DNA of 64,000 nucleotides from a virus. The notes under the pieces were generated by a model. The model did not search any database, had not been told where the DNA came from, and saw only the letters and a list, made by a program, of their open reading frames with translations. Shown here one piece after another: positions 3,078-40,859 of the stretch. Location: IMG/VR virus record IMGVR_UViG_3300037189_026207, positions 16,742 through 80,741 of that record; one strand, written 5' to 3'. The number at the start of each line of letters is the position of its first letter. Position 1 is the first letter of the stretch. The translations under genes were made by a program, and so were the position numbers.

Positions 3078-3857
3078 ATGTCCGTCTCGACAGGTACGTC
3101 TGCAGAGAATTTTTGGGACGACGGCCTTGAAGAAGAAGCAGAGTGCGAAAAGTTTCTGCAAGAGCAGAAAACAAAAGTTATTGAATACGAAGAAGAAGAG
3201 ACCAGCGCAGAACTCGCTGGTGACGACGAAGACGAAGACGAAGAGTACGAAGAAGACGAAGAAGAAGAAGATGTCGATGATGATATTGAGGACGCTGCGG
3301 ACGTAGAAGAAGAAGAAGACGACGACGTTGAGTTGCCGGAAACGGACCACGCCGCAGAAGAAGAGGATAGTGAAACGGAAAATGATCCGGTTGCTGACGC
3401 CGAAGATGCAGATGCAACCAAATCTGTGAAAGGAAAGAAGATGGCTAAGCCGAAGACACGGACTGGCGGTAAGACGAAGGCCGAAGCGATTCGCGAAGTA
3501 ATTGACCGGCGCAAGCGAGCCGGCGAGTCGCTGCGTCCGCGAGATATTATTGAAGAGCTGACCGATAACGGGTTTGCTGTTAATGCGTCGCAGGTTAGCG
3601 TCACGTTGCGCAGCATGGGCGTGCCTCCGGCGCCGAAGGGTCGGATCAAAGGCACCAAGATTAAGCCCGCGACTCCTGGCGCTGAGCCCAAGAGTCGTAT
3701 GGCGCTGAAGACGGGCGTTGGCGAAAAGCCAGCGCACAACGGCAAGCCGGCCGACGCGGCTAACATGGTAGACATGGCCGTTGAGTTTCTAAAGGCCGCA
3801 GGCGGTCACGACAAGGCCGTCGAACTGCTCGACTCGATTGCGCGCTTTGCTCGCTGA
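3078..3857 (+). CDS. Protein with very acidic N-terminus and basic, putative DNA-binding C-terminal domain
   Basis: AAGGAG SD before ATG 3078; D/E-rich tract; then KTKAEAIREVI...RPRDIIEELTDNGFAVNASQVSVTL helical domain. Confidence 0.7.
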   Translation: MSVSTGTSAENFWDDGLEEEAECEKFLQEQKTKVIEYEEEETSAELAGDDEDEDEEYEEDEEEEDVDDDIEDAADVEEEEDDDVELPETDHAAEEEDSETENDPVADAEDADATKSVKGKKMAKPKTRTGGKTKAEAIREVIDRRKRAGESLRPRDIIEELTDNGFAVNASQVSVTLRSMGVPPAPKGRIKGTKIKPATPGAEPKSRMALKTGVGEKPAHNGKPADAANMVDMAVEFLKAAGGHDKAVELLDSIARFAR

Positions 3858-3885
3858 TCGATAGTCGAGTTTCGTGGATTGCGCT

Positions 3886-3930
3886 ACCCGGCGCGGGCTT
3901 GGTCGAAAGGCTGGCCCGCGCCGGGTTTTT
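3886..3930 (+). terminator. Intrinsic terminator
   Basis: ACCCGGCGCGGGC...GAAA...GCCCGCGCCGGGT stem followed by a T run. Confidence 0.75.
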
Positions 3931-4103
3931 GCGTTTGTAGCCGAAAAATCGCGGTGGCTTGACGCGGCGACAGAAATTCGGCATCACAGAAGAAACGGGC
4001 CAAGCTGACTGGTGGCCTAACCAATCAATGTCCGCGCGATGAGCGCGCCACAAATTTAATACAAATCATCGGTTTAAACTTTTTCTACAAACAGAAAGCT
4101 GTT

Positions 4104-16467: not shown

Positions 16468-17049
16468 ATGTCAGCTGTTCTTGACGCGATTCGCCAGGTA
16501 ACTGAAGTTGCAGAGAAAATTAAGAATGATAGTCCGCAAGATTTTCCAATTGCGGCTAATGTTGGAGACGCAGTACGGCAAGGCGATATTTATATTCAAT
16601 TGCTCGAGCCGTTAACTAAGGCGCCAGCTTTTTATACAAAGATTGCTGAGCCGGTGTTTCCATATCAGTTAGCGCCTGGAAATACCAAGGGGTCGAGGCA
16701 TTGTTTGGAAGCCAGTGACGGCGTAGAAATTTACGTACCACAAACTGACGTGCTTTTAGATGAGAATCTTGACGGCAATGATCGGTTTGAACTTGGTCGT
16801 GGATTTCGAGAGGATGTACACAAGTATGCTGAAAATCTTTCTTCAGTAGCCGGCGTACCTGTACATGAAATCGCCGCCGGAATTATCGAGGCTATGGATC
16901 TTGCTGGTCCGATTTTCGTGTTGAAGAATCCGACTACAGTATCGCATCCAGAGCATGGTAATTGGAATTTGCCGGCCGGAACGTATCGGTGTGTGTTTCA
17001 GCGCACTGTGTCGCTTAGTAGCAACTCTATTCGTAGAGTTTTAGACTGA
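16468..17049 (+). CDS. Conserved hypothetical, usual partner of DUF6745 proteins
   Basis: RQGDIY...LAPGNTKGSRH...HPEHG...LPAGTY...QR...RRVLD. Confidence 0.7.
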   Translation: MSAVLDAIRQVTEVAEKIKNDSPQDFPIAANVGDAVRQGDIYIQLLEPLTKAPAFYTKIAEPVFPYQLAPGNTKGSRHCLEASDGVEIYVPQTDVLLDENLDGNDRFELGRGFREDVHKYAENLSSVAGVPVHEIAAGIIEAMDLAGPIFVLKNPTTVSHPEHGNWNLPAGTYRCVFQRTVSLSSNSIRRVLD

Positions 17050-17059
17050 TTGTGTCGAG

Positions 17060-17176
17060 TGTTGAGATTTGGATTAATGCCAATCTCAACAATATTTTTT
17101 ACGCAACAAAGGGCTGGATTAACGCCGCCCTTTGTTGTTTTTGTTTTTGGAGGGCGCTTTTAAACGCCCTCCAAAA
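17060..17176. repeat. Three tandem inverted repeats (hairpins); two share the 12-nt loop TGGATTAAYGCC
   Basis: TGTTGAGATT-TGGATTAATGCC-AATCTCAACA; CAACAAAGGGC-TGGATTAACGCC-GCCCTTTGTTG; TTTTGGAGGGCG-CTTTTAAA-CGCCCTCCAAAA. Confidence 0.85.
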
Positions 17177-23385: not shown

Positions 23386-24430
23386 ATTTTTATTGGCCGC
23401 CGCCGCGGTACATTTGGCGCAGCGCTTATTCTCAGGTACCGGCAGTACGAATACAGCATTTCGCGAAGCGGCCGCAGTTGAGATGGCGGCTACGCTGAGC
23501 AAACTGGCTGAGTTGCCGTGGAACAGGGTAAATTTTCCGGTAGCTAGTGTGCTGACGTCGCAGACCTACGCCGACATTTTTGCAGAGCACAGCGTAAAAG
23601 ATTCTGACCGCCCGCAGGTCTTGCTCGAGAGCCTGTTTACATTTCTAAACGTGCTCGAGATGGACCCAGATTTAGGGTCAGAATCTGTTCTGCGACAAAT
23701 TTTGCAAAGTGATGCTGTAACGAGAACTGTTGCGGCTACGCCCATTGAATTGAATTATCGCGCAAACGTATTAAAGATTTTTTCGCCGGCCAACGTAGCG
23801 GCAATTGATCTTGAGCCGTTACAGATTGTTGTGTACCGCGGCGAGCTTTTAGGCGGCGGATTCGGGCCTGAGCTCTGGGGCCTGGCGTACAACCACGCGG
23901 ACGATATGACGTACGTCCTGCTCGAAACGGGCGAGTTCTTAAAATTGCCGTCGACTAATCTGTGTCTCGCAACGACGAAAGATTATGCGTCAAGCGAGGT
24001 ACCGCCGTATTTGCTGGCGTGCGGTAAATTGTTCTTTCCGCACTTCCTGCCAAAGCTGCGAGTCAATCCGGCGACGATCGCAAAATTAGATAAAAACTTC
24101 GGTTCGTTTACGGAGCCTGTCTCACTAGTTTATGCAGACGTTTCTTCGCTAGAAAATTGTGAATCTGTACTTGACAGAGCTCGCTGGACGAGCGATCATG
24201 CGGACTCGAAGGGTGCGGTTAAAACGTTTGACGTAAATAGTTCTTGGCAGATTGTGGTAAACGCGCAGCAAGCCGCTATTAGGCCATACGTTAGCAGTGT
24301 TCTCGTGAATGCCGGAACTGGGTTGGTGATCATGCGCCTCGACACTCCGCGAGAGTTTTCAGCGTACGGTATTTATTTTTATCCGGCTGGTCCGGCGTCC
24401 GCCGCTTTAATTTCTTGCCCCAATCTGTAA
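23273..24430 (+). CDS. Hypothetical protein
   Basis: GGAGG SD before ATG 23273; long ORF. Confidence 0.7.
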   Translation: MSTSIKIPESSLPPSECLSSVLKTFENAQKSNVSARDKFLLAAAAVHLAQRLFSGTGSTNTAFREAAAVEMAATLSKLAELPWNRVNFPVASVLTSQTYADIFAEHSVKDSDRPQVLLESLFTFLNVLEMDPDLGSESVLRQILQSDAVTRTVAATPIELNYRANVLKIFSPANVAAIDLEPLQIVVYRGELLGGGFGPELWGLAYNHADDMTYVLLETGEFLKLPSTNLCLATTKDYASSEVPPYLLACGKLFFPHFLPKLRVNPATIAKLDKNFGSFTEPVSLVYADVSSLENCESVLDRARWTSDHADSKGAVKTFDVNSSWQIVVNAQQAAIRPYVSSVLVNAGTGLVIMRLDTPREFSAYGIYFYPAGPASAALISCPNL

Positions 24431-24432
24431 AA

Positions 24433-25908
24433 ATGACTGCCGCCACACGTCGCCCGAGAATAGTTGTTATTGGTGATTTACTCGCCGACGTGTGGTGGCA
24501 GGCCGGGCCATCTAGCCGCAACATAGAGCACGCGGCTATGGCGTTGGTTAGCGCGCCCGGCAGCAAAAAAATTACTGCTGGCGGCGTAGGCATTGTAGCA
24601 GCGGCTTTAGGGCGTGCCGGCTTTCAAGACGTTTCTTTGTTTTCTATTATCGGGCCGCAACCCGAAGCTAGTTTAGCGTTGCGAACATTAACGCGAATCG
24701 GCGTGAATACTGAACACGTAATTCGCGATGCTGATTTCGTGACGCCAATTAAAACAAGATATATCAATGCAAATGGGCATATCCTGCTTCGGCACGATAT
24801 TGAAACAACGCCGGCGGGTCATTCTGACTTTAGTAGCGCTCTAGCCTATTTAATAAAAGATGCTGATTTTGTAGTAGTGTCAGACTATGCAAAAGGTTGT
24901 ATAACACCGCACGACCGGTTGCGTATTGTGCAGCTGTGCCAGCGCTATTCAAAACTGTTACTTGTTGACACAAAACCCAGCGTTATTGACGCGTATCGCT
25001 GCGCAAACATATTTAAATTAAATAGAGCAGAAACAGAGGCAGTAGCCGGCGCACCAACAGGCTCGTTGCTAGATACAGCGTATTTGGCTGCGTGTAAATT
25101 AAATTGTGATGCGCTAATCGCAACAGACGGCGACAACGGCGTGGTTTGGGCGTCGGCAATGCATAAAAGAAGTACGGCGGCGCCAAAAAAGCATGTCGCC
25201 GGAAATTGCGTGGGCGCTGGTGATATATTTTTCGCCGGACTGATTCTTGGATTGGCGCAGCGCGACGCGCTTGGCGGGCCTGTATCTGCTGATGATTTAG
25301 ATAAGGCAGTATTTTATGGGCTTGTTGCGGCCGGCCAGCGAGTGCGAACAAATGGGTTTAAACCGTTCTCGCCCGCGGCGATTCAACAAGAAGTTTTTCG
25401 ACATCAGACGCGATTTAATCCAGCTCGCAAGATTTGCTCGTACCGCGAATTTTGCCGACTTGCAGCGCAGCTCCGTGAATCAGGCAGACGGATCGTGTTT
25501 ACGAATGGCTGTTTTGATTTAATGCACGAGGGCCATGTCAGCACTTTGATGTGGTCGCGCAAGCAGGGTGACGCATTATTTGTTGCGGTGGATTCAGATC
25601 AAAATGTGCGGCGGCTAAAAGGCGCCACACGCCCTGTGCACGACGAAACGACTCGCGCTACAAATGTCGCGGCGCTTGAGTGCGTGGATGCTGTATGCGT
25701 CTTTGACGAAACAGCCGCGGATGAAAACATGTCTTTACGCGACCTAATCCGCGCGGTACAGCCAGCTTTTTTGACTAAGGGGCCAGACTACGCAGATAAA
25801 AAAATTGTTGGACAGGAGTTTGCCGATCAGGTTTTACTTTGCCCGCTTGTTCCGGGTAAAAGCACAACGGCATTTGTTAATAAAATGACTGGATCCTTTA
25901 ACTCGTGA
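24433..25908 (+). CDS. hldE: Bifunctional heptose-7-phosphate kinase / heptose-1-phosphate adenylyltransferase
   Basis: PfkB-type domain (VIGDLLAD, TPIKTR, VSDYAKG, GAGD) plus cytidylyltransferase-like domain (VFTNGCFDLMHEGH, DSDQNVRRLKG.TRP, KGPDY, GKSTT). Confidence 0.88.
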   Translation: MTAATRRPRIVVIGDLLADVWWQAGPSSRNIEHAAMALVSAPGSKKITAGGVGIVAAALGRAGFQDVSLFSIIGPQPEASLALRTLTRIGVNTEHVIRDADFVTPIKTRYINANGHILLRHDIETTPAGHSDFSSALAYLIKDADFVVVSDYAKGCITPHDRLRIVQLCQRYSKLLLVDTKPSVIDAYRCANIFKLNRAETEAVAGAPTGSLLDTAYLAACKLNCDALIATDGDNGVVWASAMHKRSTAAPKKHVAGNCVGAGDIFFAGLILGLAQRDALGGPVSADDLDKAVFYGLVAAGQRVRTNGFKPFSPAAIQQEVFRHQTRFNPARKICSYREFCRLAAQLRESGRRIVFTNGCFDLMHEGHVSTLMWSRKQGDALFVAVDSDQNVRRLKGATRPVHDETTRATNVAALECVDAVCVFDETAADENMSLRDLIRAVQPAFLTKGPDYADKKIVGQEFADQVLLCPLVPGKSTTAFVNKMTGSFNS

Positions 25909-26662: not shown

Positions 26663-26842
26663 TCACCCCGGGCATGCTGATGTCCAGAGCGCCATGGCTC
26701 AAGCCGCTGCCTTCATTGCCGGCGGCTCAGCACCCTAGTCATGAGTGGGTTTGTAACCATGAAGCCGGCGGTGTTTAAGCTAAGACGGGATTCCTCACGG
26801 ACGCGCGCCGGAAGTCGTAAACGCAAGGAAGAAAGCGCAGGT
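26663..26842 (+). ncRNA. Putative structured RNA between two tRNAs
   Basis: Stems GGGCAT/ATGTCC; CATGG/CCATG enclosing AGCCGC/GCGGCT and ACCC/GGGT; CCGGCG-GTGTTT/GGACGC-G-CGCCGG; no convincing ORF. Confidence 0.45.
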
Positions 26843-28091: not shown

Positions 28092-29225
28092 TTGTCTACG
28101 CCTTTTTTTGTGTTTTGCGCAGATCTGCATTTAGCAGACGGCGCGTGGACGAGCCGCCCGGCAATTTACGGCGATTCCTATTACAGTTTTGCCCAGATTG
28201 TTGACCATTGTCTGGAGCACAAGCTCCCGATGGTTATTGGCGGCGACGTCTTAGATGTAAAAAAGAATTTAGCTCGGCCAGTGCAGCAGCTGTATCTGCA
28301 GATGTCGCGTATGGCGGAAGCTAAGCTGCCCGTTTACTACATTCAGGGGCAGCACGAACTTGACCGCAACGTAACGTGGTTGAGCGTACATCCCTGGCCC
28401 GTCAACGTGCATAAGACGACGTTTACAATTGCGGGCTTAAAGATATACGGGATTGATTGGCTTCCGCGCGGAGAGATCCAGGAAGCCTTTGAGCAAGTTC
28501 CGCCAGACACGGACATTCTAGTATGTCATCAGGTCTGGAAAGACTTTATGAAAAACGTAGGACGACCCGAGTGTCATCTAGGCGATGTGCATCACGTTAA
28601 ATTTGTGCTGAGTGGGGACTTCCACGTTACCACAATTGAGACGGCGCCAAATGCGCAAGGAGATCCGGCGCAACTTATCTCAACCGGCTCTACCTGCATG
28701 CAAGACATCAGCGAAAGTTCGGACAAATTCTTTTATGTTGTCGGCAGTGGTGGTTCTTGTTTGGAAGTTTTTTCGCAACAGCTAAAAACTCGCCGCATGA
28801 AGTCATATACGGTAACCAGCGCAGAAATGCTCGATGATTTGTGCGCAGGCGGTTTTCTTAAAGACATTCAAGACATGATCGGAGATTTGCCCGCAGAAAT
28901 AAATAAACCGCTTGTGCGCGTTAAGTTCGATAAAACTATCCCGGACGCCTATATTCGGATTACCACAGCCGTCGGCGACCATGCACATTTATTTTGTGAC
29001 GCGCTTGTTAACAAAAATCGCGGCGAGCAGGAAACCAATCGCGCAGTCACTAAGAATGATTTGCTGACAACCGTAGCGGAGTTGCTGAATAACGACCCCG
29101 CTGCGTTTAATCTGGCCAGCATTCTTCTAGCCGCCGATAGCCCGGCCGGCGAACTAGAAGATCAGTTTGTACAATTCCAAAACCCAGAGGAATCTAAAGA
29201 TGCAGTTATTGCGTCTGGAAGTTAA
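28092..29225 (+). CDS. sbcD: SbcD/Mre11-like metallophosphoesterase nuclease
   Basis: ADLH, GGDVLD, QGQHE, CHQ, SGDFH motifs; adjacent to an SMC-like ATPase. Confidence 0.85.
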   Translation: MSTPFFVFCADLHLADGAWTSRPAIYGDSYYSFAQIVDHCLEHKLPMVIGGDVLDVKKNLARPVQQLYLQMSRMAEAKLPVYYIQGQHELDRNVTWLSVHPWPVNVHKTTFTIAGLKIYGIDWLPRGEIQEAFEQVPPDTDILVCHQVWKDFMKNVGRPECHLGDVHHVKFVLSGDFHVTTIETAPNAQGDPAQLISTGSTCMQDISESSDKFFYVVGSGGSCLEVFSQQLKTRRMKSYTVTSAEMLDDLCAGGFLKDIQDMIGDLPAEINKPLVRVKFDKTIPDAYIRITTAVGDHAHLFCDALVNKNRGEQETNRAVTKNDLLTTVAELLNNDPAAFNLASILLAADSPAGELEDQFVQFQNPEESKDAVIASGS

Positions 29226-31329
29226 GAACTGGTGTCAACATAAATACCGTGTCTGCACATTTACACGCGGGCTGGTTGCAATCGTAGGAAAGATTGGCTC
29301 GGGTAAATCTAATTTATTAGGCGCAATTTGTTGGCTGCTTACCGGCGAAAATCCAAACGCCGGCGTAAAAGCTGATAATGTGGCGCAGTTGGCGTCTCCC
29401 GACGAGCCGGCATTTGCCACGCTTGAGTTTGAACACTCCGGGCACGTGGTTGTTGTTACGCGGCACTTGCTTCCCGAAAAAGAACAAGCCACGCTTCTCG
29501 TCGACGGTAATGAGGCTGCTCGCGGAGATAAGGCGGTTACAGCTTACATTGAAAAGCTGCTCGGTATCGACAGCAAATTTATTTCTCGGTTTGTAATCGT
29601 TGCGCAGAACGAGATCTTTGCATTTATCGAGGATGGCGCGGCTGAGGTTGATAGGTTTTTCCAGAAATTGTTTGGCACAGCGGTCGCCGAGAAATGCCAA
29701 GACGTTATCGGCAAACACTTAAACAAATTGACAATCCCAGAGGTAATAGAAACTTCAAATCAGCTAATTACGCGGCTTGACGAATTAAATGTCCAATTGA
29801 ATGCGCTGGACATTGAAATCGCGAAACTACCCTCGCTCGAGTCTTTTTTAGCTATTCAACAAACGCAGCAAAAAGTTATTCAAGACTGGGAGCGGCGAAC
29901 GCGCTTGGTGGCGGAATTAGCTACCGCAGAAAAAAGCACTGAGATTCATGAACAGCAGCTTCAAGACGCTACGCGGGAACTTGCGCAGTACGACAGTGAT
30001 CTTGAGGCACTGCGCAAAGCCCTCGGCGGCGATCAGGCGGCACATTCAACCGCTAAGATTGCACTAGGGCATTGGGCAAACTATAAGCATTTGTCTACCG
30101 CAAAAGAAAAGACGCAAAATCGTATAAATGAAATTGTAACGCTGCGCGCGGCAACACAAGCTCCGGCAGCACCCGCGGCAGACGTTATTGATGTTGCTGT
30201 CAAACAAGAGATGGCGACAATTGCAGAGCTGACGCGTTTAGAAAAATTTGTAAGCACATTTGCGACAGACGGCGTAGCCGAGTGTCCGACTTGCCACACT
30301 TCCGCAAAAGATTTGAAAAAAGCTGTCGAGCAAGCTCAGCGCAGTATTGTTGAATTAAATGCGTTGCGTAAAAAGCAAAATGCGGAGGTTCAAGCGGCGT
30401 ATACCGCAAAGCAGGCATATGATGTATGGGCGCAGCAGGATTTAAACCTAGCGGCAGAAGAGAAACAGCTCCGCGAATCCATGGCGCTGTTCTCCAATGT
30501 GCAAATGCCCGAGCTGAGCGAAGAAGAGTCCGCAAAAATTGTTATGGACTTTGAAAATTTTCAAAAGGCTGAGCTGGGAATTCTTCCGCTGGCGCAAGCC
30601 GCAAAAGAAAAACGCGCGGCGTTGTCTGGCGGTCTGTCGGCGGCTAAACAGCAATATGAAAATCTTCAGGCGCAGATTGCTGACATAAAAGTAACGCAGG
30701 CAGAGGCGCATATGGCTACCACTGTACTGCAAAATTTAAGCCAGCAGTGTGTCAAGCGCCAAGAGTTAGAGCGGCAACACGCAGAGTTGAAATTTTCTTG
30801 CGATAACATTAATCAACAATATTTAACTGCAAAAGAAAATGAGCAAAAAGCTGAGCGGATGCGTGACTGGTCTGCGGTAGCCACTTCGGCAAAAGACGCG
30901 CTCAAGGCTGCGCCGAGGATTGTTGCGGCTAGAAATTTAAAAAGACTAGAGGCTGCAATAAATGAATTATTACAAGTATTTGGTGTTGACTTTTTTGTAC
31001 GCGCCGCCAATGACGAATCGCCAACATTTATTGCTGAATTTTTCGATGGACGTAAACAGCCGGCAAAAAGATTATCGTACGGGCAAAAAACCGTATTAGC
31101 GTTAGCTTTTCGCGTAGCTGTTAATGCGTTGTTTGCCGAAGAAATTGGTTTACTGGCGCTGGATGAACCCACAGCTTATTTAGATCAACAGAGAATTAAG
31201 GCGCTAGCCCCGGTTCTTGAAAAATTGCGCGAGCTTTCTACCGCGCGTGGGTTACAATGTCTATTGGTAACTCACGAAACTAGCCTGGCTCATTTGTTTG
31301 AGTCGGCGGTTGAGCTCGATGTGCAATAA
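29200..31329 (+). CDS. sbcC: SbcC/Rad50-like SMC ATPase
   Basis: GKIGSGKSN Walker A, coiled coil with CPTC zinc hook, LSYGQK signature, LALDEPT, VTHE. Confidence 0.9.
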   Translation: MQLLRLEVKNWCQHKYRVCTFTRGLVAIVGKIGSGKSNLLGAICWLLTGENPNAGVKADNVAQLASPDEPAFATLEFEHSGHVVVVTRHLLPEKEQATLLVDGNEAARGDKAVTAYIEKLLGIDSKFISRFVIVAQNEIFAFIEDGAAEVDRFFQKLFGTAVAEKCQDVIGKHLNKLTIPEVIETSNQLITRLDELNVQLNALDIEIAKLPSLESFLAIQQTQQKVIQDWERRTRLVAELATAEKSTEIHEQQLQDATRELAQYDSDLEALRKALGGDQAAHSTAKIALGHWANYKHLSTAKEKTQNRINEIVTLRAATQAPAAPAADVIDVAVKQEMATIAELTRLEKFVSTFATDGVAECPTCHTSAKDLKKAVEQAQRSIVELNALRKKQNAEVQAAYTAKQAYDVWAQQDLNLAAEEKQLRESMALFSNVQMPELSEEESAKIVMDFENFQKAELGILPLAQAAKEKRAALSGGLSAAKQQYENLQAQIADIKVTQAEAHMATTVLQNLSQQCVKRQELERQHAELKFSCDNINQQYLTAKENEQKAERMRDWSAVATSAKDALKAAPRIVAARNLKRLEAAINELLQVFGVDFFVRAANDESPTFIAEFFDGRKQPAKRLSYGQKTVLALAFRVAVNALFAEEIGLLALDEPTAYLDQQRIKALAPVLEKLRELSTARGLQCLLVTHETSLAHLFESAVELDVQ

Positions 31330-31332
31330 TTC

Positions 31333-32268
31333 ATGATATACTCAAATGATGAAAGCGCAATTAAGCTACACGTAGACGACGCCGGTTTTGTGTGGCACGT
31401 TTCCGGGATCGATAAGCCACAAAATTCCGGCAAGTTGGTAGATACATTTTTGTATTCTTCGCCCGTGCTGCGCGTTAGTTCGAACGTGCGGGTGTTGGGT
31501 TTGTCGCAGAATGCAGAATTAATTACTAATATGTATCTGCGAAAGCGTCAGCGCGAATTAGGCAGCATATTAGTCGCTGGGCCAAACATCTGTGAGTCTG
31601 GGTTGGAGCTCCGCGATCCGTACATTGTTTTGATGCGGATGCGCGAGTCTTTTTTAACGTCAGCTTGCGGCGGTTGGCACACGATGACTGACGCAGACTA
31701 CGCTACTTATGCGTTAGTGGCTAAAGCCCGGCAAACAGCGCATTGGTTTGATACGCCGGCGCGAGCTTTTTATACGGCTCACCCGGCATTTCCGGCGCTG
31801 CAGTTTATTCCTAACATTTCAAATCAGGACGCGGCTACTCTTTTAGCTACGATTGTGGATCCCAGATGGTATGTAGATCGGCGTATTCCTGATCGTGCGT
31901 CTAAGCTTGAGTTGTATCTTGGTTTAACGCCAAAAATTCAGCGCCGCATATCCAATGATAAAAAATTAATTTGCCGGGGGAGAGACTTACGTTGCGCTAT
32001 TGTTTTAAATTGCTGGAAAACTCAACACCCAGGCGCCGTCGACTATAATCTGCCGCAAAACTTTATCTGGCGAGTTTGGAAAGCGGCCGGCGGTGGCGCG
32101 AAGGGTGACCTGCGGGCTTCTCAGGCTTTTGTTCGTTATTTGCGCCTTAACTGGTTAGACGCATTAATTTTAAGAGCAGGCCCCCGAGATCGTATTTTCT
32201 CTAGCAACAATTTTTTCAAAACATCTGAAGAACGAGACGCTTATTCTACTCATATGTCGGCAATGTAA
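31333..32268 (+). CDS. IS110/Nop-domain-like (TIGR-Tas-like) putative RNA-binding protein
   Basis: HPAFPALQFIPNISNQDAATLLATIVDPRWY...ASKLELYLGLTP matches the IS110 C-terminal/Nop pattern (L..IPG.G...AA.LLA.I.D..RF.....L..Y.GL.P); terminal helix DLRASQAFVRYLRLNW. Confidence 0.6.
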   Translation: MIYSNDESAIKLHVDDAGFVWHVSGIDKPQNSGKLVDTFLYSSPVLRVSSNVRVLGLSQNAELITNMYLRKRQRELGSILVAGPNICESGLELRDPYIVLMRMRESFLTSACGGWHTMTDADYATYALVAKARQTAHWFDTPARAFYTAHPAFPALQFIPNISNQDAATLLATIVDPRWYVDRRIPDRASKLELYLGLTPKIQRRISNDKKLICRGRDLRCAIVLNCWKTQHPGAVDYNLPQNFIWRVWKAAGGGAKGDLRASQAFVRYLRLNWLDALILRAGPRDRIFSSNNFFKTSEERDAYSTHMSAM

Positions 32269-32273
32269 TTTCT

Positions 32274-32768
32274 ATGCAAGAAGTTATTATCAAATTGCGG
32301 TTTAATCGGGAATGCTTAGGCGCCTCAAAGCGTAAACGACACTCGCAGGTCGTGTTTTCTTTTGATCATGATCCCGCCGGGCGCATCATGTTTATGCCGT
32401 CTGCGTGGAGTAGCGTTATGCGCTATGCGGCTAAATTATCAAATCGGCATCATGACGCAGTGCAGAAAATCGACTGGTGCCCGCTTGTAGAGGGTCAGCC
32501 TAGACCTGACTGGCGGCGTACGATAGTATCCAAGGCCGGCGAGGCTACCAGGACGCACTACGCCGTGCACGAGGCTTTCCCGCCCGGCTCAACTATATTA
32601 ATTTCTGCAGTTGTCCCAGATGAAATTTCGCTGAAAGAATTTGAAGATTTATTGACAATCGTCGGAAAATACAAAGGCTTTTCACCATTTAACAACGCAA
32701 CAGAGCATTATGGGACATTTGAAGTCTTATCAATCACCACAATCAGAGACAACGCGAATGTCGGCTAG
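32274..32768 (+). CDS. Stand-alone Cas7/RAMP-like protein
   Basis: IKLRFNRECLG (beta1 plus G), FDHDPAGRIMFMPSAWSSVMR (RD..G.P.IPGSS.KG..R-like), HEAFPPGS, LLTIVGKYKGFSPF...YGTFEV (G-loop plus last strand). Confidence 0.65.
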   Translation: MQEVIIKLRFNRECLGASKRKRHSQVVFSFDHDPAGRIMFMPSAWSSVMRYAAKLSNRHHDAVQKIDWCPLVEGQPRPDWRRTIVSKAGEATRTHYAVHEAFPPGSTILISAVVPDEISLKEFEDLLTIVGKYKGFSPFNNATEHYGTFEVLSITTIRDNANVG

Positions 32769-34293
32769 TCTAGCGTGCGACATAATTATTAATCGCTGTG
32801 GAAACAGATTAACAGTTCATCGCGCCGACAACATGCCTTTTTCGGCGGAATTGCTCGAAGCGTTAACAAAAGATTTACGCTACCAGCATGTCGAGCATGT
32901 TCACGGCGCAGCGCAGCGCAACCCTATTACAGGGCAGCGCCAGTACTTTAAGACGACTGAGTACAAGTTATTTCGGTATGAGAACGGTAAGCTAATCGTG
33001 CTGGGTGGTTACTTAGCCCGAATTGGCTCGCAACTAAAGCGTCTTGGTTGCCGGGTAGCGTTGCAAGATACCTCGCCACCCCGCAAGCGCCCTGACGCAT
33101 TTAAACCAGAGTGGGCCAACATGGAGGGCCGAATTGAATTTAGAGCCCGGCAGGAGGAGTGTTTACGGCTTTTGTCGCGCGTACCTTGTGGAATTATTAA
33201 AGCGGTCACCGGTTTCGGCAAGACCACACTTATTGGCGCTGCTGCCCTGCTATTTCCTGAAGCAAAAATTCATGTTGTTACGAAGTCGGTAGACGTTGCT
33301 GAGCGTATTGTTCGGTCTTTAAAGCGTTTTGTGCCCAAAGTCGGAATGGTCGGCGACGGCTCAAAACACTGGGAGCGTGTAACAGTTATCACGGCTGGCA
33401 GTCTCGCTCACTCCGATGGCGACGCTGATTTTTTGTTTTGCGACGAAGTACATCAGCTAGCCACAGTGAATTTTTCAACATCGCTAGCACAACGATATAA
33501 GCACAGCCGCAATTTCGGGCTAAGCGCAACTCCATATGCGCGCATGGACAACGCGCATGCAGTTCTTGAGCCGTTGTTTGGTCCTATGATATTTGAACTG
33601 ACATATCAAGAAGCGGTAGAGCTCGGACTAGTCGTACCTATTCGTGTTCGTTGGTTGCCGATTCGTATGACGTTTAACCCCGCAGAACGATACTCAAATC
33701 GTGTGGCGCGAAAGCGTTACGGGGTCTGGACAAACGCTGATCGAAACCGTATGATCGCCGACGCGGTGCGAGAGTATCCTGACACGCATCAAATTTTGAT
33801 TCTTGTCGAAACAATCGAGCACGCAGTTCATCTGGGCTCTCTTCTGCCCGAGTTCACGCTGGTGTACTCGAGCATGTTTCCTTCTGACTGCAACAACTAT
33901 AAAAAGCGCGGTCTTTTGCCCAAAGATTACAAGCCGCTAAGTGATTACGACAAGCATCAACTACGTAATAAATTTGAGTCAGGTGAGCTGCGCAAAGTTA
34001 TTGCAACAGACGTTTGGGCTACCGGCGTAGATTTTGAGCAGTTAAATGTGTTGGTCCGGGCCGACGACCGCGACAGTGACATTGTTGACGTTCAGGGTCC
34101 TGGCCGTGTCAGCCGTTTATACACCGCGCCTAATGGTGATAAAAAAGAATTTGGCGAAGTTATCGATTGCATGGATACATTCGACCCTACTTTTTATCGA
34201 AAGAGTACGGGTCGTCGCAATTCTTACAAGCTTTTAGGATGGGAGCAGAATTGGAATGAAGCGCAGCGCAGCTGGAGGAACAATAGCGACTGA
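32758..34293 (+). CDS. SF2 DNA helicase (UvsW/Rad25-like)
   Basis: RARQ Q-motif, TGFGKT, DEVH, SATP, TGVD, QGPGRVSR. Confidence 0.9.
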   Translation: MSASLACDIIINRCGNRLTVHRADNMPFSAELLEALTKDLRYQHVEHVHGAAQRNPITGQRQYFKTTEYKLFRYENGKLIVLGGYLARIGSQLKRLGCRVALQDTSPPRKRPDAFKPEWANMEGRIEFRARQEECLRLLSRVPCGIIKAVTGFGKTTLIGAAALLFPEAKIHVVTKSVDVAERIVRSLKRFVPKVGMVGDGSKHWERVTVITAGSLAHSDGDADFLFCDEVHQLATVNFSTSLAQRYKHSRNFGLSATPYARMDNAHAVLEPLFGPMIFELTYQEAVELGLVVPIRVRWLPIRMTFNPAERYSNRVARKRYGVWTNADRNRMIADAVREYPDTHQILILVETIEHAVHLGSLLPEFTLVYSSMFPSDCNNYKKRGLLPKDYKPLSDYDKHQLRNKFESGELRKVIATDVWATGVDFEQLNVLVRADDRDSDIVDVQGPGRVSRLYTAPNGDKKEFGEVIDCMDTFDPTFYRKSTGRRNSYKLLGWEQNWNEAQRSWRNNSD

Positions 34294-35029
34294 TCCGACG
34301 CTGCTCACGCCAGACTGGCATAAAGCACTTTCGGAAAAACAATTAATGGCGTATGTTCGCCATTCGTATATTTGGCGACAGAGCGGCTCAACAGATCTAG
34401 CCAGCCGCGAACAGTTAAAGACAGTACCGAGGTGGGACGGCGGACAAGACGCGTATGGCGTAAAATTTAGCCCCGTCTGGCCAAAAATTGCGAGACTTAT
34501 TCGCGCAGTTGATGCAGATCCAGGTATTTGGGTCGCCGCACACTTCTCGCCGATCGCGACGCGAAAGTATGTAACGGACAGCGGCTCCTTCGAGGTTCCA
34601 GATGTTACGCCGTCAAATTTATGCGGCAAATTATCTGAAACAATTTATCATGAATATTGCAGCGCTTTTCCAAAGATAACTATCGATGGGTATAACGCGG
34701 CTGGCCGGTCCATCGCGCTTAGGCTGCGCAGTCTTCAACGCTTAAATGTGTCTGAAGACGATCGGCATTTTTGTGTAATTTGTGACGAAGGATATGTCGC
34801 TGCCTCGCCTATCGTTAGGCAGGGTTTCGCTAATGCCTTTAATTTACCTGAAGCTATTGCGCGTTATTTGTGGCCCGCCGCGCTGGAGTACGACGCGAAA
34901 CAACGACTGTATGATCGCGTTATTCCAGAATTTATTCCGGCATGGCTTATTTCCGATCAACTACTAGACACGGTAAAAAAGATCAGACAGCATTGGAGGC
35001 AGTATGAACAATCGGTCGGAAAGGGATGA
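34256..35029 (+). CDS. Hypothetical replication-module protein (possible helicase loader or initiator)
   Basis: Lies between the SF2 helicase and DnaB-like helicase; function inferred from position only. Confidence 0.6.
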   Translation: MKRSAAGGTIATDPTLLTPDWHKALSEKQLMAYVRHSYIWRQSGSTDLASREQLKTVPRWDGGQDAYGVKFSPVWPKIARLIRAVDADPGIWVAAHFSPIATRKYVTDSGSFEVPDVTPSNLCGKLSETIYHEYCSAFPKITIDGYNAAGRSIALRLRSLQRLNVSEDDRHFCVICDEGYVAASPIVRQGFANAFNLPEAIARYLWPAALEYDAKQRLYDRVIPEFIPAWLISDQLLDTVKKIRQHWRQYEQSVGKG

Positions 35030-36692
35030 GCAGCGCTGTGATATCCCGATTACGTATCCTGACATGTCTGCTATGTTGCGCGGACTGCTTCGATACGATC
35101 GGTTATTTGGCGAGGCAATTCGGGCAGGATTGAAGCCGCATCACTTCGGCACCAATCCAGACGAGACAGCGCATCAGGTTTTGTACGCTTCAATGTGCGT
35201 ATTGCGAGAGCAGTACGGCGCGATCACAAAACCAATGCTGATTCATCACATTGCCAGCTTAATTGTTGGTAATCATGTTGAATTAACTCCTGGAGAGAAT
35301 GAGTGGCTGCTTGGCCGGGATGACAGCAGTATTCAAGGCTTTATTGAAGAAGCATTTGATACTCCGCCGCTATCGTCCGAACAGGAGGCGGCAGAGAAGC
35401 GGCACGTAGAATCAATTCTACGTCGCTTTTTAAATTCTCGACTTATTAAACAATCGCTGCAGAGCGTATTAAATCGTGTAGATGCGAACTCGGCGCCAGA
35501 AGATATTGCCGGCCTGCTCGAAAACTTTTGTCGGCAGTCGCAGCGCGTTAAGCATGTCGGCGAGGCGTTAGACAATGCGGCGGCGTTGCCTGTATTTGGT
35601 TCTCCTATTGATTTACCGCCACCACCAGAACCGACAAATGTTCCGTGGATTGACCAGTACATCGGCGGCACTCGTCCGCGCGATCTTATTGGGCTACTGG
35701 CGCCGTTCGGCGGCGGCAAGACGACGATGGGTATTTCGGCTGCGGTAAGAATCGCAGAAAATTATTATCTTACTGAGCAGAATAAGATTGCCGTCTATGT
35801 CTGCTTTGAAGACGGGGCAGAAAAAATGCGGCACTTGTGTTGGTCCGCCGCGGCACAAATTGAGCGTCGGCTTTTTGATATTAAAGACGTAGGCATCGAT
35901 CCGGAAAAATTTTGGCGCGCGTTCTCTACGGCGGATACGCTTAAAGACTATGAGTTTGCATTGCCTATTAATCAGAACGGCAAAGTTATGCTCGGCGAGC
36001 GCGAGCGGTGGGAGTCTATTTCTGACTGGTACAACAAGCACTTTGTATTTTTAGATTTTGCCCACAGTACTGGCACGTCAGCCCGCGGCAACGGCGGCCC
36101 CGTGGAATTGGCTGAAGTTTTAAAGCGCGTAGTCGAAGAACGTAAGTGTGACATCGGCTTCGTTGTTATCGACTACGCGGGTCGAATGATTGACCGTATG
36201 ATCGGCATTCAACAGCAAGATCAGCTGTGGCGTTACATCAAACTTTTGCCAGACGAGTTGCGGCGGCACATTGCAGATGAGTTTGACGCTACACTACTGA
36301 TTGCGCATCAGCTGGCTGCCGGGGACATCAAGTCTTACCCGCCTAGTCGATATAGCCATCATCATGATTCACAGGGCGGCAAGAGTTTTGCGGAAAATTT
36401 GCACGCGTGCTGTTGCCTCGGTATGCGCGATATTGATACCAAGGCTTGTACGCTGCACTGGTCAAAGATCCGCGCATTTATGCCCGAATCTCCCCTAGGA
36501 ATTGTGAAAATTCATGACCACTATGTAGATGTTAATTTAGTGAATGACAAGTATCGTGTATGCAAACAGTCTAAGAAAATTTTATTAAACAGTGATATAC
36601 ATCCATTTACCGGCGGTCGTGAAACTTCTTCTCGCCGTAACTCATCTGCTTCTGTGTTGGATCCTTTTACAGCAAATTTTGGCGACGCATGA
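35004..36692 (+). CDS. Replicative helicase, DnaB/SF4-like
   Basis: PTNVPWID...APFGGGKTT Walker A, CFED, VIDY, AHQL motifs; precedes the primase. Confidence 0.8.
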   Translation: MNNRSERDEQRCDIPITYPDMSAMLRGLLRYDRLFGEAIRAGLKPHHFGTNPDETAHQVLYASMCVLREQYGAITKPMLIHHIASLIVGNHVELTPGENEWLLGRDDSSIQGFIEEAFDTPPLSSEQEAAEKRHVESILRRFLNSRLIKQSLQSVLNRVDANSAPEDIAGLLENFCRQSQRVKHVGEALDNAAALPVFGSPIDLPPPPEPTNVPWIDQYIGGTRPRDLIGLLAPFGGGKTTMGISAAVRIAENYYLTEQNKIAVYVCFEDGAEKMRHLCWSAAAQIERRLFDIKDVGIDPEKFWRAFSTADTLKDYEFALPINQNGKVMLGERERWESISDWYNKHFVFLDFAHSTGTSARGNGGPVELAEVLKRVVEERKCDIGFVVIDYAGRMIDRMIGIQQQDQLWRYIKLLPDELRRHIADEFDATLLIAHQLAAGDIKSYPPSRYSHHHDSQGGKSFAENLHACCCLGMRDIDTKACTLHWSKIRAFMPESPLGIVKIHDHYVDVNLVNDKYRVCKQSKKILLNSDIHPFTGGRETSSRRNSSASVLDPFTANFGDA

Positions 36693-37732
36693 GCACACCA
36701 ATTAACCCGACTCTGTATCGTTTGTTAGCTCAAAAATTTGGCGAGGTTAGATTTTCAAATGAAGGTTGTCATGCTTACGTGCAACGCATGCCTGATCCTC
36801 TTAATCCTCGTCGCACAATTACACGAGCGACGTCATGGGGAGAGTATTACTGCATTAATTGTCCGTTCTGTGGCGACACTCGCTTTCGTCTTTGGATTAA
36901 TCACACTTATGCATCTGAAGTAGTAAATGGTGTTCGGCAGAATACAAATGTCGCCATTTGTTATAACGAGCAGTGTTTAAAAGTTCCGGGGCGCAGCGAA
37001 CAGTTAGAACAAATTATTTTCGGGCATGGGCGCCATTTAAAGCCACAGGCGTTGCCCCTGCAGCCTGTAACGATGCCGCACGAACCAACGCCCGTTCGCC
37101 CGCCAGGCACTGTTATTCCGTTGACAGAGCTGCCGCTAGATCATCCAGCCCGAGAGTACGTAGTCTCTCGCGGGTTCAGCGCGGAAGAGCTAACTGCAAA
37201 TTTTAATGTCGGACTTTGCATCAACGTGGACGAGCCGCGGCTGTATACGGCTCGTGGTCGGTTGTATATTCCAGTTACGTATAGGCAAGAACTCGTGGGG
37301 TGGCAATGCCGCGCTATTGCTCCTAACTCAGAGCCAAAATATTTTAACGCCCCCGGAATGAAAAAATCTGCGCTGCTTTACAACTATGATGTTGCGCAAA
37401 GTCAGCCTTACGTCATTGTGGTCGAGGGCGTGCCGAGTGTGTGGCGATTAGGCCGAGCTGCGGTATGTTTATTTGGTAAGACTATGTCCTACCAGCAGCA
37501 GAAACTTATTGCGCGTACGTGGGCTGGCAAACCAGTATTTTTATTGCTTGACCATGACGCCAAACCGGAACTTGACCGCGCTACGACGACGCTGTCTAAC
37601 ATGTCGGTTAACGTGGTGCCGGTAGAACTTCCGGACGCGAGAGATCCGGCTGATTATTCTTTTGCGGACATTGGTGATTTGCTGGCGGCTCGTGCGTCAG
37701 CCGCTGGGTTAGGTAGTTCAATCAAAATCTAG
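36689..37732 (+). CDS. DNA primase (zinc ribbon plus TOPRIM)
   Basis: CPFCGD...C; YVVSRG; GRLYIP; KYFN; VVEG; LDHD; DPAD. Confidence 0.88.
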   Translation: MSTPINPTLYRLLAQKFGEVRFSNEGCHAYVQRMPDPLNPRRTITRATSWGEYYCINCPFCGDTRFRLWINHTYASEVVNGVRQNTNVAICYNEQCLKVPGRSEQLEQIIFGHGRHLKPQALPLQPVTMPHEPTPVRPPGTVIPLTELPLDHPAREYVVSRGFSAEELTANFNVGLCINVDEPRLYTARGRLYIPVTYRQELVGWQCRAIAPNSEPKYFNAPGMKKSALLYNYDVAQSQPYVIVVEGVPSVWRLGRAAVCLFGKTMSYQQQKLIARTWAGKPVFLLLDHDAKPELDRATTTLSNMSVNVVPVELPDARDPADYSFADIGDLLAARASAAGLGSSIKI

Positions 37733-37739
37733 GTGTATC

Positions 37740-40700
37740 GTGAAACATAATTTATCGGAAGCGCTGTACGACCAGCGTCGTCAGCCGATTGTTGAAGCGC
37801 AGTGGCCGGCGGTTGATTTTACTGGCCCGGGAATGCCTGCTCCTGGACCAGACTTTGTTAAGCACGCCATGGACCTCGGCGACGAAGTTGATATGGCGGC
37901 TTTTAAGAAAAAGAAGAAACTAGTATTTGGACAAAACTTAGATTACTTGTATCGTCGAGCGATGTATGACGCAGGTTTTTCTTTGCCTGTGCTCGGCAAG
38001 CGCGGGGTGTTTGACGCAAAATTTGTGCCAGGACATTTAATCGGGTCTGATCAGCAACAAATTGTGTACGGACCAAAACCAGCAAAAATTATGCTGGTCG
38101 GAAAAATTCCTGGCCTAGATAACTTGAGCGAAAAGGACGCGTGCGCCGGCACAGCGATGCACGAATTTTTTCGCGCCATCGGCGAGTTAGGCGTAACCGC
38201 AGAAGAGTACAGCAAGTGGTACGTCACGTTTGCTTGTAAGTTTAGCGCCCCAAGCATCGACATTGATGTTATTCAGGCGTCGTGGCTAAAAGATTGCGCG
38301 CTCATCACGGCGCAAGAACTCAGGATTGTACGGCCAGATTATATTTTGTGTCTCGGAGCCGACGCCACTAAGGCGATTATGAATTCGCCTGTAAAACTTA
38401 ATAACCAGGTCGGCGAGATTACTGTTCCTTTACCGGACGGCGGCGAGCATAAAATTCAAGTTATGTCTTCATTACATCCAGCATTTGTAGCTCGCAGGCC
38501 TGATAGTTACGCAGAGTTTCGCGGTCAGATTCAAAGATTTTTAGATCTAACGCAAGATAAGCTTACAACCACAGAAGACGTCGACCACGCTGAGATTTAT
38601 ACGGAAGATGCGTTACGCGCCACAGTAGACGAGATGATTGCAGACCCGGACGTTAACGCCAATATTATTGCCGTCGACTGTGAGTGGCACGGTGACTACC
38701 CGACTGAGCCCAATGCCTATCTGCGAACAATCCAGATATCAAATAAAGATAAGTGGGCACGAACTATTGTGCTCCGGTACGAAGGCGGCGCAGAAGCGTT
38801 TAGGCCTAGCCTAGACACGGCGCGTGAGCAGTTGTGCCGACTGTTAAAGAGTACGCCAGAACGGCAAGTGCGGGTGGGCGGGCACTTCCTGCGGGCGGAC
38901 TTGCCGTGGCTGATTAATTTTGGCGTAGACGCGCGGCCAGAGTATGCGCCAGATCCTGATCCTGAATGTCGCACCCGCGGCGGTTGGGATACAAGTCTGA
39001 TGTATCACGCGGTGAACGAGACGGCGAAGTACGGGCTGGATGCGTGTACGGTGCATTTCACGAATGCACCAACATATTGGGCCCGGCTTGATAAATGGAA
39101 AAAGAGCTTCTGCACACAATATAAGATTAAAGGCGGCAACCTGGGCGGCTACGGCGAATGCCCGAGCCACATTCTGCATCCGTACGCAAATTATGACGCG
39201 GACGTAACTCGTAGAATCATGTTGCGATTTTACGGGACGGACGGGCGTGACGGATTAATTGCCAGCGACACCTACCGCAACGATTGCTGGTTGCCGTACT
39301 GGACTGCGCACGTAGCGTCGTTAGCGTTTCTGGAAATGGAAATGACCGGCTTTGTTGTCGACCGCAATCGGGCCGACGAGCTTACAAATTTATTTATGGA
39401 AACGCAGGACAGACTGCTAGCGGAGATTCGTCAAGATTTAAGCTGGCCTGACTTTAATCCAAAGTCGCAGCCTCAACTTGCGGTGGCGTTGTTTGGTCGT
39501 GGTTTTATAAGCAATTTTACTAATACTATTACTGTGCCTGATTTTGCGCGTACGTTAGACCTAACGCCCATTAAGACAACGGGAAAAAGGCCTAAGTTAT
39601 GGAAAGATTTAAAGCCACAAACGCGTAAGACCTCGTCGCCGAGCACGGACAAAGAAAGCTTAGGTATTTTTGGCCACTTGAACGTCACTGCCGCAAAAAT
39701 TCGTGACTATAAATTTATTGCGCAGGTTTTGCAGTCCGTTCTGCGAAAGCCGAACGCAGACGACGACGGAGAATTTGAGACGGATGACAACGGCAATTAT
39801 TCGTATGAAAAAGGTCTTATCGGTTGCGCGCATGCTGACGGTAAAGTTAGAACGCATCTTTTCCAGACAAAAGAAACTGGACGCGCCAGCAGCTCCCGAC
39901 CTCCGCTTCAAAACCTTAGTTCGCGCAGAGAGGACGACTACAAGCGCATCCTTGGAGCCGCCCACAAACATCCGGTACGTTCAATATTGCGCGTCCCGCC
40001 CGGTTATGTCGGCATCGAAACGGATTTCACTGGTGCGGAATTGGCGGTCTTAGCTTGGCTTAGTCAGGACGCCAATATGATTGAACACGTCCGGCGTAAT
40101 TTATTGCCAGAAGAAGATCCTGATCACTACGATATTCACTCACAACAAGCCGTTAAAGTATTTAATTTAACCAACGTAACGCCAACGAAAAGCGGTATGG
40201 TTAAAGCTGGTTGCAAAGGACTGCGTATTGCGGCAAAAAACGTGAACTTTGGTATCCCGTACGGCCGCGGTCCTGAAGCTATTGCGCGTCAGTGTAAGGA
40301 AGAAGGCGTGAGCGTAACGCCAGAGGACTGTAAGGCGATGATTGCGGCTTACTTCTCAGCTTATCCTAAAACCGAAGATTTTCTTGCGTCTTGCCGGCAG
40401 CGGTCGCAGGATCCTGGTTGGCTTGTTGGCCCGTACGGAAGATTTAGACGATTTAGCAATTCGGCACATAAGGACGGCGCTACTATTGGAGAGCAGGAAC
40501 GACAGGCGCAAAACTTTCCAATTCAAGGCGGCGTAGCTGATGCGGTATCTATTGCTCTAGCTAATTTTGTTAATTATCGCGCGCAGCATCCAGATGTTGA
40601 GTATCGCGTAGCTCTTCAGATTCACGACGCTATTATTTTAGTGGTACCTATCGCGCACGCCGAGCGTGTATACCACGAGGTTATTCCCAAGTGCATGGTC

Positions 40701-40859
40701 GACGACGTGCCGTTCTGGCCGCGTACACTGAGCGGTCAGCCGATCCCGGTCGAAAAGCCGTATCATTTTGGTATTGATTGTGATGTATTTATTCATTGGG
40801 GCGAGAAGCTTAAGTCAAATCAAATCGACGAAATGGGCCTGAATTGGCTGAAAAAGTAG
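37740..40859 (+). CDS. polA: Family A DNA polymerase with N-terminal uracil-DNA-glycosylase-like domain and 3'-5' exonuclease
   Basis: UDG4-like LVGKIPG...ILCLGADA...LHPA; exonuclease AVDCE; TGRASSSRPPLQN; motif A DFTGAEL; motif B RIAAKNVNFGIPYG; NFPIQG; motif C QIHDA. Confidence 0.92.
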   Translation: MKHNLSEALYDQRRQPIVEAQWPAVDFTGPGMPAPGPDFVKHAMDLGDEVDMAAFKKKKKLVFGQNLDYLYRRAMYDAGFSLPVLGKRGVFDAKFVPGHLIGSDQQQIVYGPKPAKIMLVGKIPGLDNLSEKDACAGTAMHEFFRAIGELGVTAEEYSKWYVTFACKFSAPSIDIDVIQASWLKDCALITAQELRIVRPDYILCLGADATKAIMNSPVKLNNQVGEITVPLPDGGEHKIQVMSSLHPAFVARRPDSYAEFRGQIQRFLDLTQDKLTTTEDVDHAEIYTEDALRATVDEMIADPDVNANIIAVDCEWHGDYPTEPNAYLRTIQISNKDKWARTIVLRYEGGAEAFRPSLDTAREQLCRLLKSTPERQVRVGGHFLRADLPWLINFGVDARPEYAPDPDPECRTRGGWDTSLMYHAVNETAKYGLDACTVHFTNAPTYWARLDKWKKSFCTQYKIKGGNLGGYGECPSHILHPYANYDADVTRRIMLRFYGTDGRDGLIASDTYRNDCWLPYWTAHVASLAFLEMEMTGFVVDRNRADELTNLFMETQDRLLAEIRQDLSWPDFNPKSQPQLAVALFGRGFISNFTNTITVPDFARTLDLTPIKTTGKRPKLWKDLKPQTRKTSSPSTDKESLGIFGHLNVTAAKIRDYKFIAQVLQSVLRKPNADDDGEFETDDNGNYSYEKGLIGCAHADGKVRTHLFQTKETGRASSSRPPLQNLSSRREDDYKRILGAAHKHPVRSILRVPPGYVGIETDFTGAELAVLAWLSQDANMIEHVRRNLLPEEDPDHYDIHSQQAVKVFNLTNVTPTKSGMVKAGCKGLRIAAKNVNFGIPYGRGPEAIARQCKEEGVSVTPEDCKAMIAAYFSAYPKTEDFLASCRQRSQDPGWLVGPYGRFRRFSNSAHKDGATIGEQERQAQNFPIQGGVADAVSIALANFVNYRAQHPDVEYRVALQIHDAIILVVPIAHAERVYHEVIPKCMVDDVPFWPRTLSGQPIPVEKPYHFGIDCDVFIHWGEKLKSNQIDEMGLNWLKK

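Follow-up and report, generated by a model that had tools for sequence, protein, structure and literature searches.

A TasR-like protein with a predicted inactive RuvC-like domain is encoded by a core gene in the replication operon of uncultured ~200-kb phages

The locus and its gene family

The window analysed here is a 64,000-nt stretch of the IMG/VR virus record IMGVR_UViG_3300037189_026207 (positions 16,742 to 80,741 of the record), and coordinates are window positions unless another sequence is named. The record itself, called G000 below, is 80.7 kb long with an estimated completeness of about 39%. Directly downstream of a gene for an SbcC/Rad50-like ATPase lies an intact open reading frame (ORF) for a 311-amino-acid (aa) protein, whose predicted structure resembles those of TasR proteins and IS110 recombinases. 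It is a core gene in a large group of uncultured phages with genomes of about 200 kb, where it sits in a replication and recombination operon. The genes and protein features of the locus are listed in Table 1.

The gene is packed tightly into its operon: the ATG lies 3 nt past the sbcC stop codon (TAA ttc ATG), the next ATG follows 5 nt after its end, and there is therefore no room for a flanking non-coding RNA. The first-pass annotation, made from the letters and their ORFs, had likewise noted the lack of a non-coding flank, of element ends and of an adjacent array. All of the large ORFs surrounding the gene are on the + strand, and the TasR-like protein is probably co-translated with SbcC through translational coupling. 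Promoter-like and terminator-like sites between 25.8 and 41 kb are no more frequent than in shuffled sequences.

The 311-aa protein has no match in Pfam (E≤0.1) or PHROG, in a tblastn search of 50,697 phage records, or among PDB sequences, whether the query was the protein alone or one of the profiles A1 and A2; a scan of G000 with PF01548 and PF02371 at E≤10 also gave no match. The family is nonetheless large. At least 320 clusters at 90% identity, each of about 310 aa, are annotated ‘hypothetical’ and lie on contigs of up to ~208 kb, and a profile search assembled 1,042 clusters at 50% identity with E≤1e-3, 602 of them with E≤1e-30 (the clusters listed are the best 150 of the 1,042). Cellular occurrence is limited to one of 185,579 species genomes, on a 13-kb contig of a metagenome-assembled genome, and a search outward from the most divergent member, from locus L062, yielded only two proteins. 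The predicted isoelectric point is 9.5, and the family median is 8.85. Weak signals of kinship come from Transposase_20 (PF02371, the IS110 C-terminal domain), which matches four of 52 relatives (best E 0.04), and from protein-language-model features, by which the protein falls beside PF02371-bearing clusters (score 0.93), viral and Minisyncoccota ones included.

Table 1. Genes and protein features of the TasR-like locus (window coordinates).
Feature	Position	Strand	Basis or remarks
SbcD/Mre11-like nuclease gene	28092..29225	+	PHROG 100 E 2.5e-7; syntenic in related loci
SbcC/Rad50-like ATPase gene	29167..31329	+	Pfam SMC_N E 2.2e-18; PHROG 77 E 8e-34; directly upstream in 62/62 loci
TasR/IS110-like protein gene	31333..32268	+	intact ORF, 311 aa
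N-terminal RuvC/RNase H-like domain, residues 1-118	31333..31686	+	strand-strand-strand-helix-strand-helix-strand order; domain-level fold matches; column statistics
GGWH motif, residues 113-116	31669..31680	+	near-invariant; G113 99%, G114 98%, W115 84%, H116 94%
C-terminal Nop/Tas-type domain, residues 120-311	31690..32265	+	TasH structural alignments
DPRWYVD motif, residues 176-182	31858..31878	+	most conserved stretch of the family; invariant in alignment A2
L..Y.GL.P helix-hairpin-helix, residues 192-200	31906..31932	+	IS110 Transposase_20-like signature; model and alignment
Cas7/Csm3-like RAMP protein gene, 164 aa	32274..32768	+	predicted structure
XPB-like superfamily 2 (SF2) helicase gene	32710..34293	+	Pfam ResIII and Helicase_C; in every locus with enough flank
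257-aa protein gene ahead of dnaB	34256..35029	+	no Pfam/PHROG match; syntenic in most loci
DnaB-like replicative helicase gene	35004..36692	+	PHROG 19 E 1.6e-13; weak Pfam DnaB_C
DnaG-type primase gene	36689..37732	+	PHROG 47 E 6e-43; Pfam DNAG_N
Family A DNA polymerase gene, 3'-5' exonuclease	37740..40859	+	Pfam DNA_pol_A E 1.5e-44, DNA_pol_A_exo1

Predicted fold and conserved residues

An AlphaFold2 model built from 52 relatives reached a predicted local distance difference test score (pLDDT) of 89.5 and a predicted template modelling score (pTM) of 0.89. Compared with the PDB using Foldseek, its top matches are the IS621 bridge-RNA recombinase and TIGR-TasR, with probabilities of 0.96-0.97 and alignments over the full length; among BFVD viral structures just one weak match was found (probability 0.82). 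The program VIA-align aligned 229 residues, spanning model residues 8-309, with TasR (9mty_B) at Z 10.6, and gave Z 8.3 for IS621 and 6.8 for ISCro4. TasH chains align over residues 120-308 only (Z 7.9-8.3, with 8.3 on residues 127-308; root-mean-square deviation 3.2-4.6 over 135-151 residues). A Foldseek-independent search of 48,161 PDB chains ranked TasR first (Z 10.6), TasH second (8.3) and ISCro4 third (6.8), followed by RuvX/YqgF, the RuvC resolvases of poxviruses and phages, and the RuvC domains of Cas12/TnpB, at Z 5-7 over residues 1 to ~115. From this series of matches the protein is predicted to consist of an N-terminal domain of the RuvC/RNase H fold and a C-terminal domain of the Nop/Tas type, and in the model the fold is nearer to TasR than to IS110 (Z 6.8-8.3).

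The C-terminal domain carries the motif L192-x-x-Y195-x-G197-L198-x-P200 inside a helix-hairpin-helix (predicted helices 190-195 and 200-207), and a further predicted helix (298-310) closes the chain. The longest predicted helix has 24 residues (255-278), and a long helical hairpin is not predicted. With 192 residues the Nop-like part is ~55 shorter than that of TasH (~246), which, together with the missing helical hairpin in the model, would be in keeping with the lack of a coiled coil.

Residue conservation was assessed in 167 diverse family members, down to 22-25% identity, with catalytic positions mapped by fold topology rather than by residue-level superposition. The beta1 strand (residues 9-14) contains about 0% Asp/Glu; Lys or Arg occupies position 11 (K11) in 83% of sequences and His position 13 (H13) in 60%. 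The position following beta4 is Asn (N60) in 93%, and no column of residues 1-118 exceeds 69% Asp/Glu. Two-metal catalysis is thus unlikely, because the carboxylates expected from the fold topology at beta1 and after beta4 are absent, and on this mapping the RuvC-like domain is inactivated, with the first two catalytic carboxylates lost. The other landmark of IS110 catalysis is missing as well: past the GLxP the sequence reads GLTPKIQRRISN, with no SG. S207 (‘ISN’ in this protein), which aligns with the region of the IS110 ‘SG’ nucleophile, is Ser in 23% of members and deleted in some lineages; a ‘GVSG’ is retained in a few distant members only and looks like a relic of IS110-like ancestry.

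The conserved set comprises W21, R53, G56, N60, P84, S111, GGWH (113-116), D/E122, Y126, H150, DPRW (176-179), D182, GL (197-198), W228, R247, W274 and E300. D/E122, which follows GGWH, is found in 99% of sequences; D176, P177, R178, W179 and D182 of the DPRWYVD stretch are found in 99%, 100%, 99%, 91% and 83%, and G197 and L198 of the hairpin in 97% and 89%.

These results bear out most of what the first-pass annotation had read from the sequence. The L..Y.GL.P pattern does lie in a helix-hairpin-helix, a C-terminal helix does close the protein, and both the DEDD tetrad and the SG after GLxP are lacking. The assignment to the IS110/Tas (Nop-domain) superfamily holds, since the best structural matches are TasR, TasH and IS110 proteins and not unrelated helix-hairpin-helix proteins. 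The N-terminus, which the annotation proposed to check for a decayed RNase H fold, has the strand order and the RuvX/YqgF, RuvC and Cas12 matches of that fold and has not conserved its catalytic carboxylates. The likeness to TasA, a solo Nop protein, has to be revised: because a full RuvC/RNase H-like N-terminal domain is kept, the protein is TasR-like, with a nuclease domain predicted to be dead.

The operon and the Cas7-like neighbour

Each of 62 related IMG/VR loci (25-63% identity to the 311-aa protein) has the same gene order: SbcD, SbcC, the TasR-like protein, in most cases the Cas7-like protein, the XPB-like helicase, the 257-aa protein, DnaB, DnaG primase and family A polymerase. The TasR-like gene is present once per genome in five complete genomes of 204-226 kb. 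Since the order is fixed in 62 of 62 loci and the gene is single-copy, it is not a mobile element, and the description of it as domesticated in the first-pass annotation stands.

The 164-aa Cas7-like protein was modelled with a pLDDT of 93.5. Over its whole length VIA gives Z 12.3 to Cmr-beta and 12.1-10 to Csm3, gRAMP, and type VII and type IV Cas7, within a range of Z 12.3-7, and 107 Foldseek matches pass E≤1e-3 (lowest 1.5e-6); on these structural comparisons it is a minimal RAMP of the Cas7/Csm3 type. It sits outside any CRISPR locus. Of 61 usable loci, 51 have the Cas7-like gene beside the TasR-like one by hidden Markov model search, and the 10 that lack it are divergent. L041, L048, L050, L053, L055-L058 and L062 have no Cas7-like gene between the TasR-like gene and the helicase. 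In divergent loci the slot holds unrelated small ORFs, insertions of 1.9-2.1 kb or a short gap (165-350 nt), and no clear RNA was found in the gaps that replace the gene; the 350-nt gap of L053 is rich in GC, and its predicted fold is very stable (-139.6 kcal/mol).

The helicase has its best PDB sequence matches in archaeal XPBII/Rad25 (E 1e-13), and its gene overlaps the 3' end of the Cas7-like gene. At L007, L020, L029, L042 and L052 the helicase match begins ~1.5 kb farther downstream, which suggests an insertion (an intein, an intron or a homing-endonuclease gene) in or before the gene. The 257-aa protein is possibly a loader, an idea prompted by inference only. At the N-terminus of the family A polymerase a UDG-superfamily domain (Pfam UDG, E 3.5e-9) precedes the 3'-5' exonuclease domain, and a UvsX/RecA-like gene lies farther downstream. 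Just upstream of the replication module (24415-25908, + strand) is a gene for an HldE-like bifunctional protein with PfkB kinase and cytidylyltransferase-like domains.

Possible roles and the search for an RNA partner

Known Tas and IS110 proteins act as programmable nucleases, repressors or recombinases, each accompanied by a guide RNA of its own. In these phages their fold occurs without array, catalytic residues or mobility, and the gene is among the most conserved of a replication and recombination operon. Either RNA-guided machinery has been exapted for DNA replication or repair, or this is a guided system with an unconventional guide source.

We consider it fairly probable that the protein is an exapted, nuclease-dead, array-less TasR-like subunit that binds nucleic acid within the recombination and replication machinery of the phage. 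The Nop-like domain and the dead RuvC scaffold would together bind a structured nucleic acid, for which RNA, an RNA-DNA hybrid or R-loop, and a branched or hairpin DNA end are candidates. In most lineages the protein would work with the adjacent Cas7-like single-strand binder. As replication proceeds from recombination or from R-loop priming, it might position or regulate SbcCD or the DNA opener, the XPB-like helicase. There is precedent in that TasRs without catalytic activity keep their DNA binding, and in the array-less TasR clade without a coiled coil noted in dense viral genomes (bioRxiv 10.64898/2026.09.09.750476).

Several points weigh against this reading. The ligand and the partners are our proposal, and the Cas7-like protein is not an obligatory partner, because 10 of 61 loci are without it. 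The likeness to Tas and IS110 comes from the predicted structure and weak sequence signals, profile searches of the PDB gave no match, and the Foldseek E-values for IS621 and TasR are only 0.015-0.03. By topology, H116 and D/E122 may occupy the places of the last His/Asp pair of RuvC, so that two of the four positions would survive, and through them the protein may keep a residual or altered active site. The array scans described below, moreover, would not pick up stem-loop units whose stems vary, very short arrays (under three units) or RNAs encoded by the host.

The foremost alternative is that the protein is a genuine RNA-guided DNA binder, whose guide could be an RNA encoded in trans or by the host, a transcript of the phage, or a primer. 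Together with the Cas7-like protein it would form a chimeric Tas-Cas7 ribonucleoprotein and bring the XPB-like helicase to an origin or recombination site, by analogy with the recruitment of Cas3 by Cascade and of DinG by type IV systems. The TasR-like and Cas7-like folds are otherwise known from RNA-guided effectors, an SF2 helicase lies downstream in every locus, and conservation within the protein is highest in the C-terminal Nop-like motifs. Dead TasRs, like TasA, work as RNA-guided repressors, and an ‘alternative guide RNA source’ is left open for an array-less clade (Xu et al. 2026, bioRxiv 10.64898/2026.09.09.750476). The searches for an RNA partner nevertheless make this alternative unlikely. 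Lag-identity scans covered periods of 20-99 nt on G000 and on the complete related genome G001, and of 26-69 nt on three further complete genomes (G002, G004 and G005); no TIGR-like array was found in any of the five, nor by Tandem Repeats Finder on the window. The periodic signals that did appear are coding repeats with periods in multiples of 3; the exceptions are one duplication of 35 nt (G004) and four hairpins of 23 nt (G001). Gaps of at least 120 nt total only ~7.5 kb of the 204 kb of G001, and the single item shared between the intergenic gaps of G000 and G001 by blastn is a tRNA. A scan of the gaps for large-loop hairpins returned noise only, and Rfam identified two tRNAs and nothing else in the window.

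An RNA embedded in the coding sequence, as described for some tas genes, is also disfavoured, because the TasR-like gene has no excess synonymous conservation. In a test on eight operon genes from 11 related loci (a subgroup 70-93% identical to each other), it has the lowest synonymous codon identity of the eight (0.46 vs 0.52-0.57), and none of its windows reaches the 99th percentile; all outlier windows map either to the 3' ends of sbcD and of the Cas7-like gene, where genes overlap, or to one motif of SbcC. The absence of the Cas7-like gene from the 10 divergent loci counts against the alternative too, as does the doubtful dual-spacer dimer geometry of Tas in a protein for which no long coiled coil is predicted. 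A more specific form of this alternative, which we hold to be less likely again, is an array-less chimeric Tas-Cas7 ribonucleoprotein made up of the TasR-like protein, the Cas7-like protein and the XPB-like helicase, in which a phage transcript or primer would serve as ‘guide’ for building or stabilising an R-loop and for opening the DNA for DnaB loading. If true, two lineages of RNA-guided defence and transposition would have given rise to an RNA-guided machine for replication initiation or recombination.

It is also conceivable, at rather long odds, that the protein is an active structure-specific nuclease or resolvase that acts with SbcCD on branched DNA through a non-canonical site (e.g. 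H116, D/E122, N60, K11 and R53). Its N-domain does resemble YqgF/RuvX and the poxvirus and phage RuvC resolvases (Z 5.8-6.8), H116 and D/E122 are near-invariant, and recombination genes adjoin its gene; the two carboxylates that all RuvC-fold nucleases need (in beta1 and after beta4) are, however, absent family-wide, and the C-terminal Nop-like domain would be left unexplained. Readings of the gene as an IS110 insertion sequence, functional or recently decayed, or as a TIGR-Tas module of the standard kind for defence or competition, are contradicted by the data in spite of the fold similarity to IS621 and ISCro4 and the weak PF02371 matches: there is no DEDD, conserved serine, flanking non-coding DNA or array, the single copy keeps its position in 62 of 62 loci, and the full-length protein is under purifying selection in 1,042 clusters.

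An exapted TasR-like subunit can be set beside several known systems. TasA, TasH and TasR were defined by Faure et al. 2025 (PMC12045711), who describe TasR as active or inactivated and link the Nop domain of Tas proteins with IS110 and with box C/D Nop5. The dead stem-loop TasRs (TaTasR, 9MTY; PateTasR; CsTasR) share with the phage protein a RuvC-like and a Nop-type domain, a size of ~300 aa and carriage by phages, and TasR is the best structural match to the modelled protein, whose RuvC domain appears to be inactive as theirs is. The differences are that the phage gene has no TIGR array adjacent to it, inside it or in the four complete genomes; that the protein has no predicted long coiled coil and no detectable sequence similarity to solved Tas proteins; and that the gene is a fixed core member of a replication operon, unlike TasR accessory loci. 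The IS110 recombinases (IS621, 8WT6/8WT9; ISCro4, 9T56) have the RuvC-like N-domain, the L..Y.GL.P C-domain, a full-length alignment and the weak PF02371 signal in common with it, whereas their DEDD tetrad, conserved Ser nucleophile, bridge-RNA flank, mobility and multiple copies are all wanting here.

Box C/D Nop5/Nop56/58 likewise join a dead RuvC-like N-domain to a Nop domain (PMC12045711). Nop5 is not among the top structural matches, and neither fibrillarin (PF01269) nor L7Ae (PF01248) has a match in G000, G001, G002, G004 or G005, in searches whose positive controls worked; a snoRNP-like reading was rejected on these grounds. The conserved catalytic carboxylates of the YqgF/RuvC-type resolvases are lacking as well: conservation extends only to D/E122 (99%) and H116 (94%), where the two domains meet. 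The archaeal Mre11-Rad50-HerA-NurA and XPB-Bax1 clusters offer an analogy only, in that they place an RNase H-fold protein and a helicase beside Mre11/Rad50 homologues; unlike in those clusters, the RNase H-fold protein of the phage is without catalytic residues, and NurA and Bax1 are not among its structural matches.

The phage family probably corresponds to the ‘divergent tas clade’ of Xu et al. (bioRxiv 10.64898/2026.09.09.750476), ‘one long phylogenetic branch’ of compact TasRs with no coiled coil and no detectable arrays in dense viral genomes. The match is by description only, and every stated property fits. The guide source of that clade is the open question to which an unconventional guide here would relate. 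The preprint is silent on the genomic context, partners and function of the clade; the setting of SbcCD, Cas7-like protein, XPB-like helicase and replisome for such proteins comes from the present analysis.

Some other structured or repeated sequences are also present. Three tandem terminator-like hairpins (17060-17176, + strand) follow the gene at 16468-17049, and two of them, with unrelated stems, have near-identical 12-nt loops (TGGATTAAYGCC, at 17070 and 17115). The rest of the 80.7-kb record lacks this loop motif, which the complete G001 has only once, and the loops are too small for Tas-type spacer pairs. For the 178-nt spacer between tRNA-Lys and tRNA-Gln (26665-26842, + strand), the predicted folding stability does not exceed that of dinucleotide-shuffled sequences (z +1.45); Rfam gives no match at E≤1, and the spacer is not conserved in G001. 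The four tandem 23-nt hairpins of G001 are intergenic (G001:C1:18495-18600, locus L063), with the stem GACTGC/GCAGTC and two alternating 10-nt loops, and are not TIGR-like because variable spacers are absent. Upstream of the window, G000:C1:1000-1500 and 3800-4050 contain long low-complexity coding repeats rich in Ser, Asp and Gln, with periods of 24 and 42 nt, and repeat-rich genes resembling them are present at 112-116 kb of G001.

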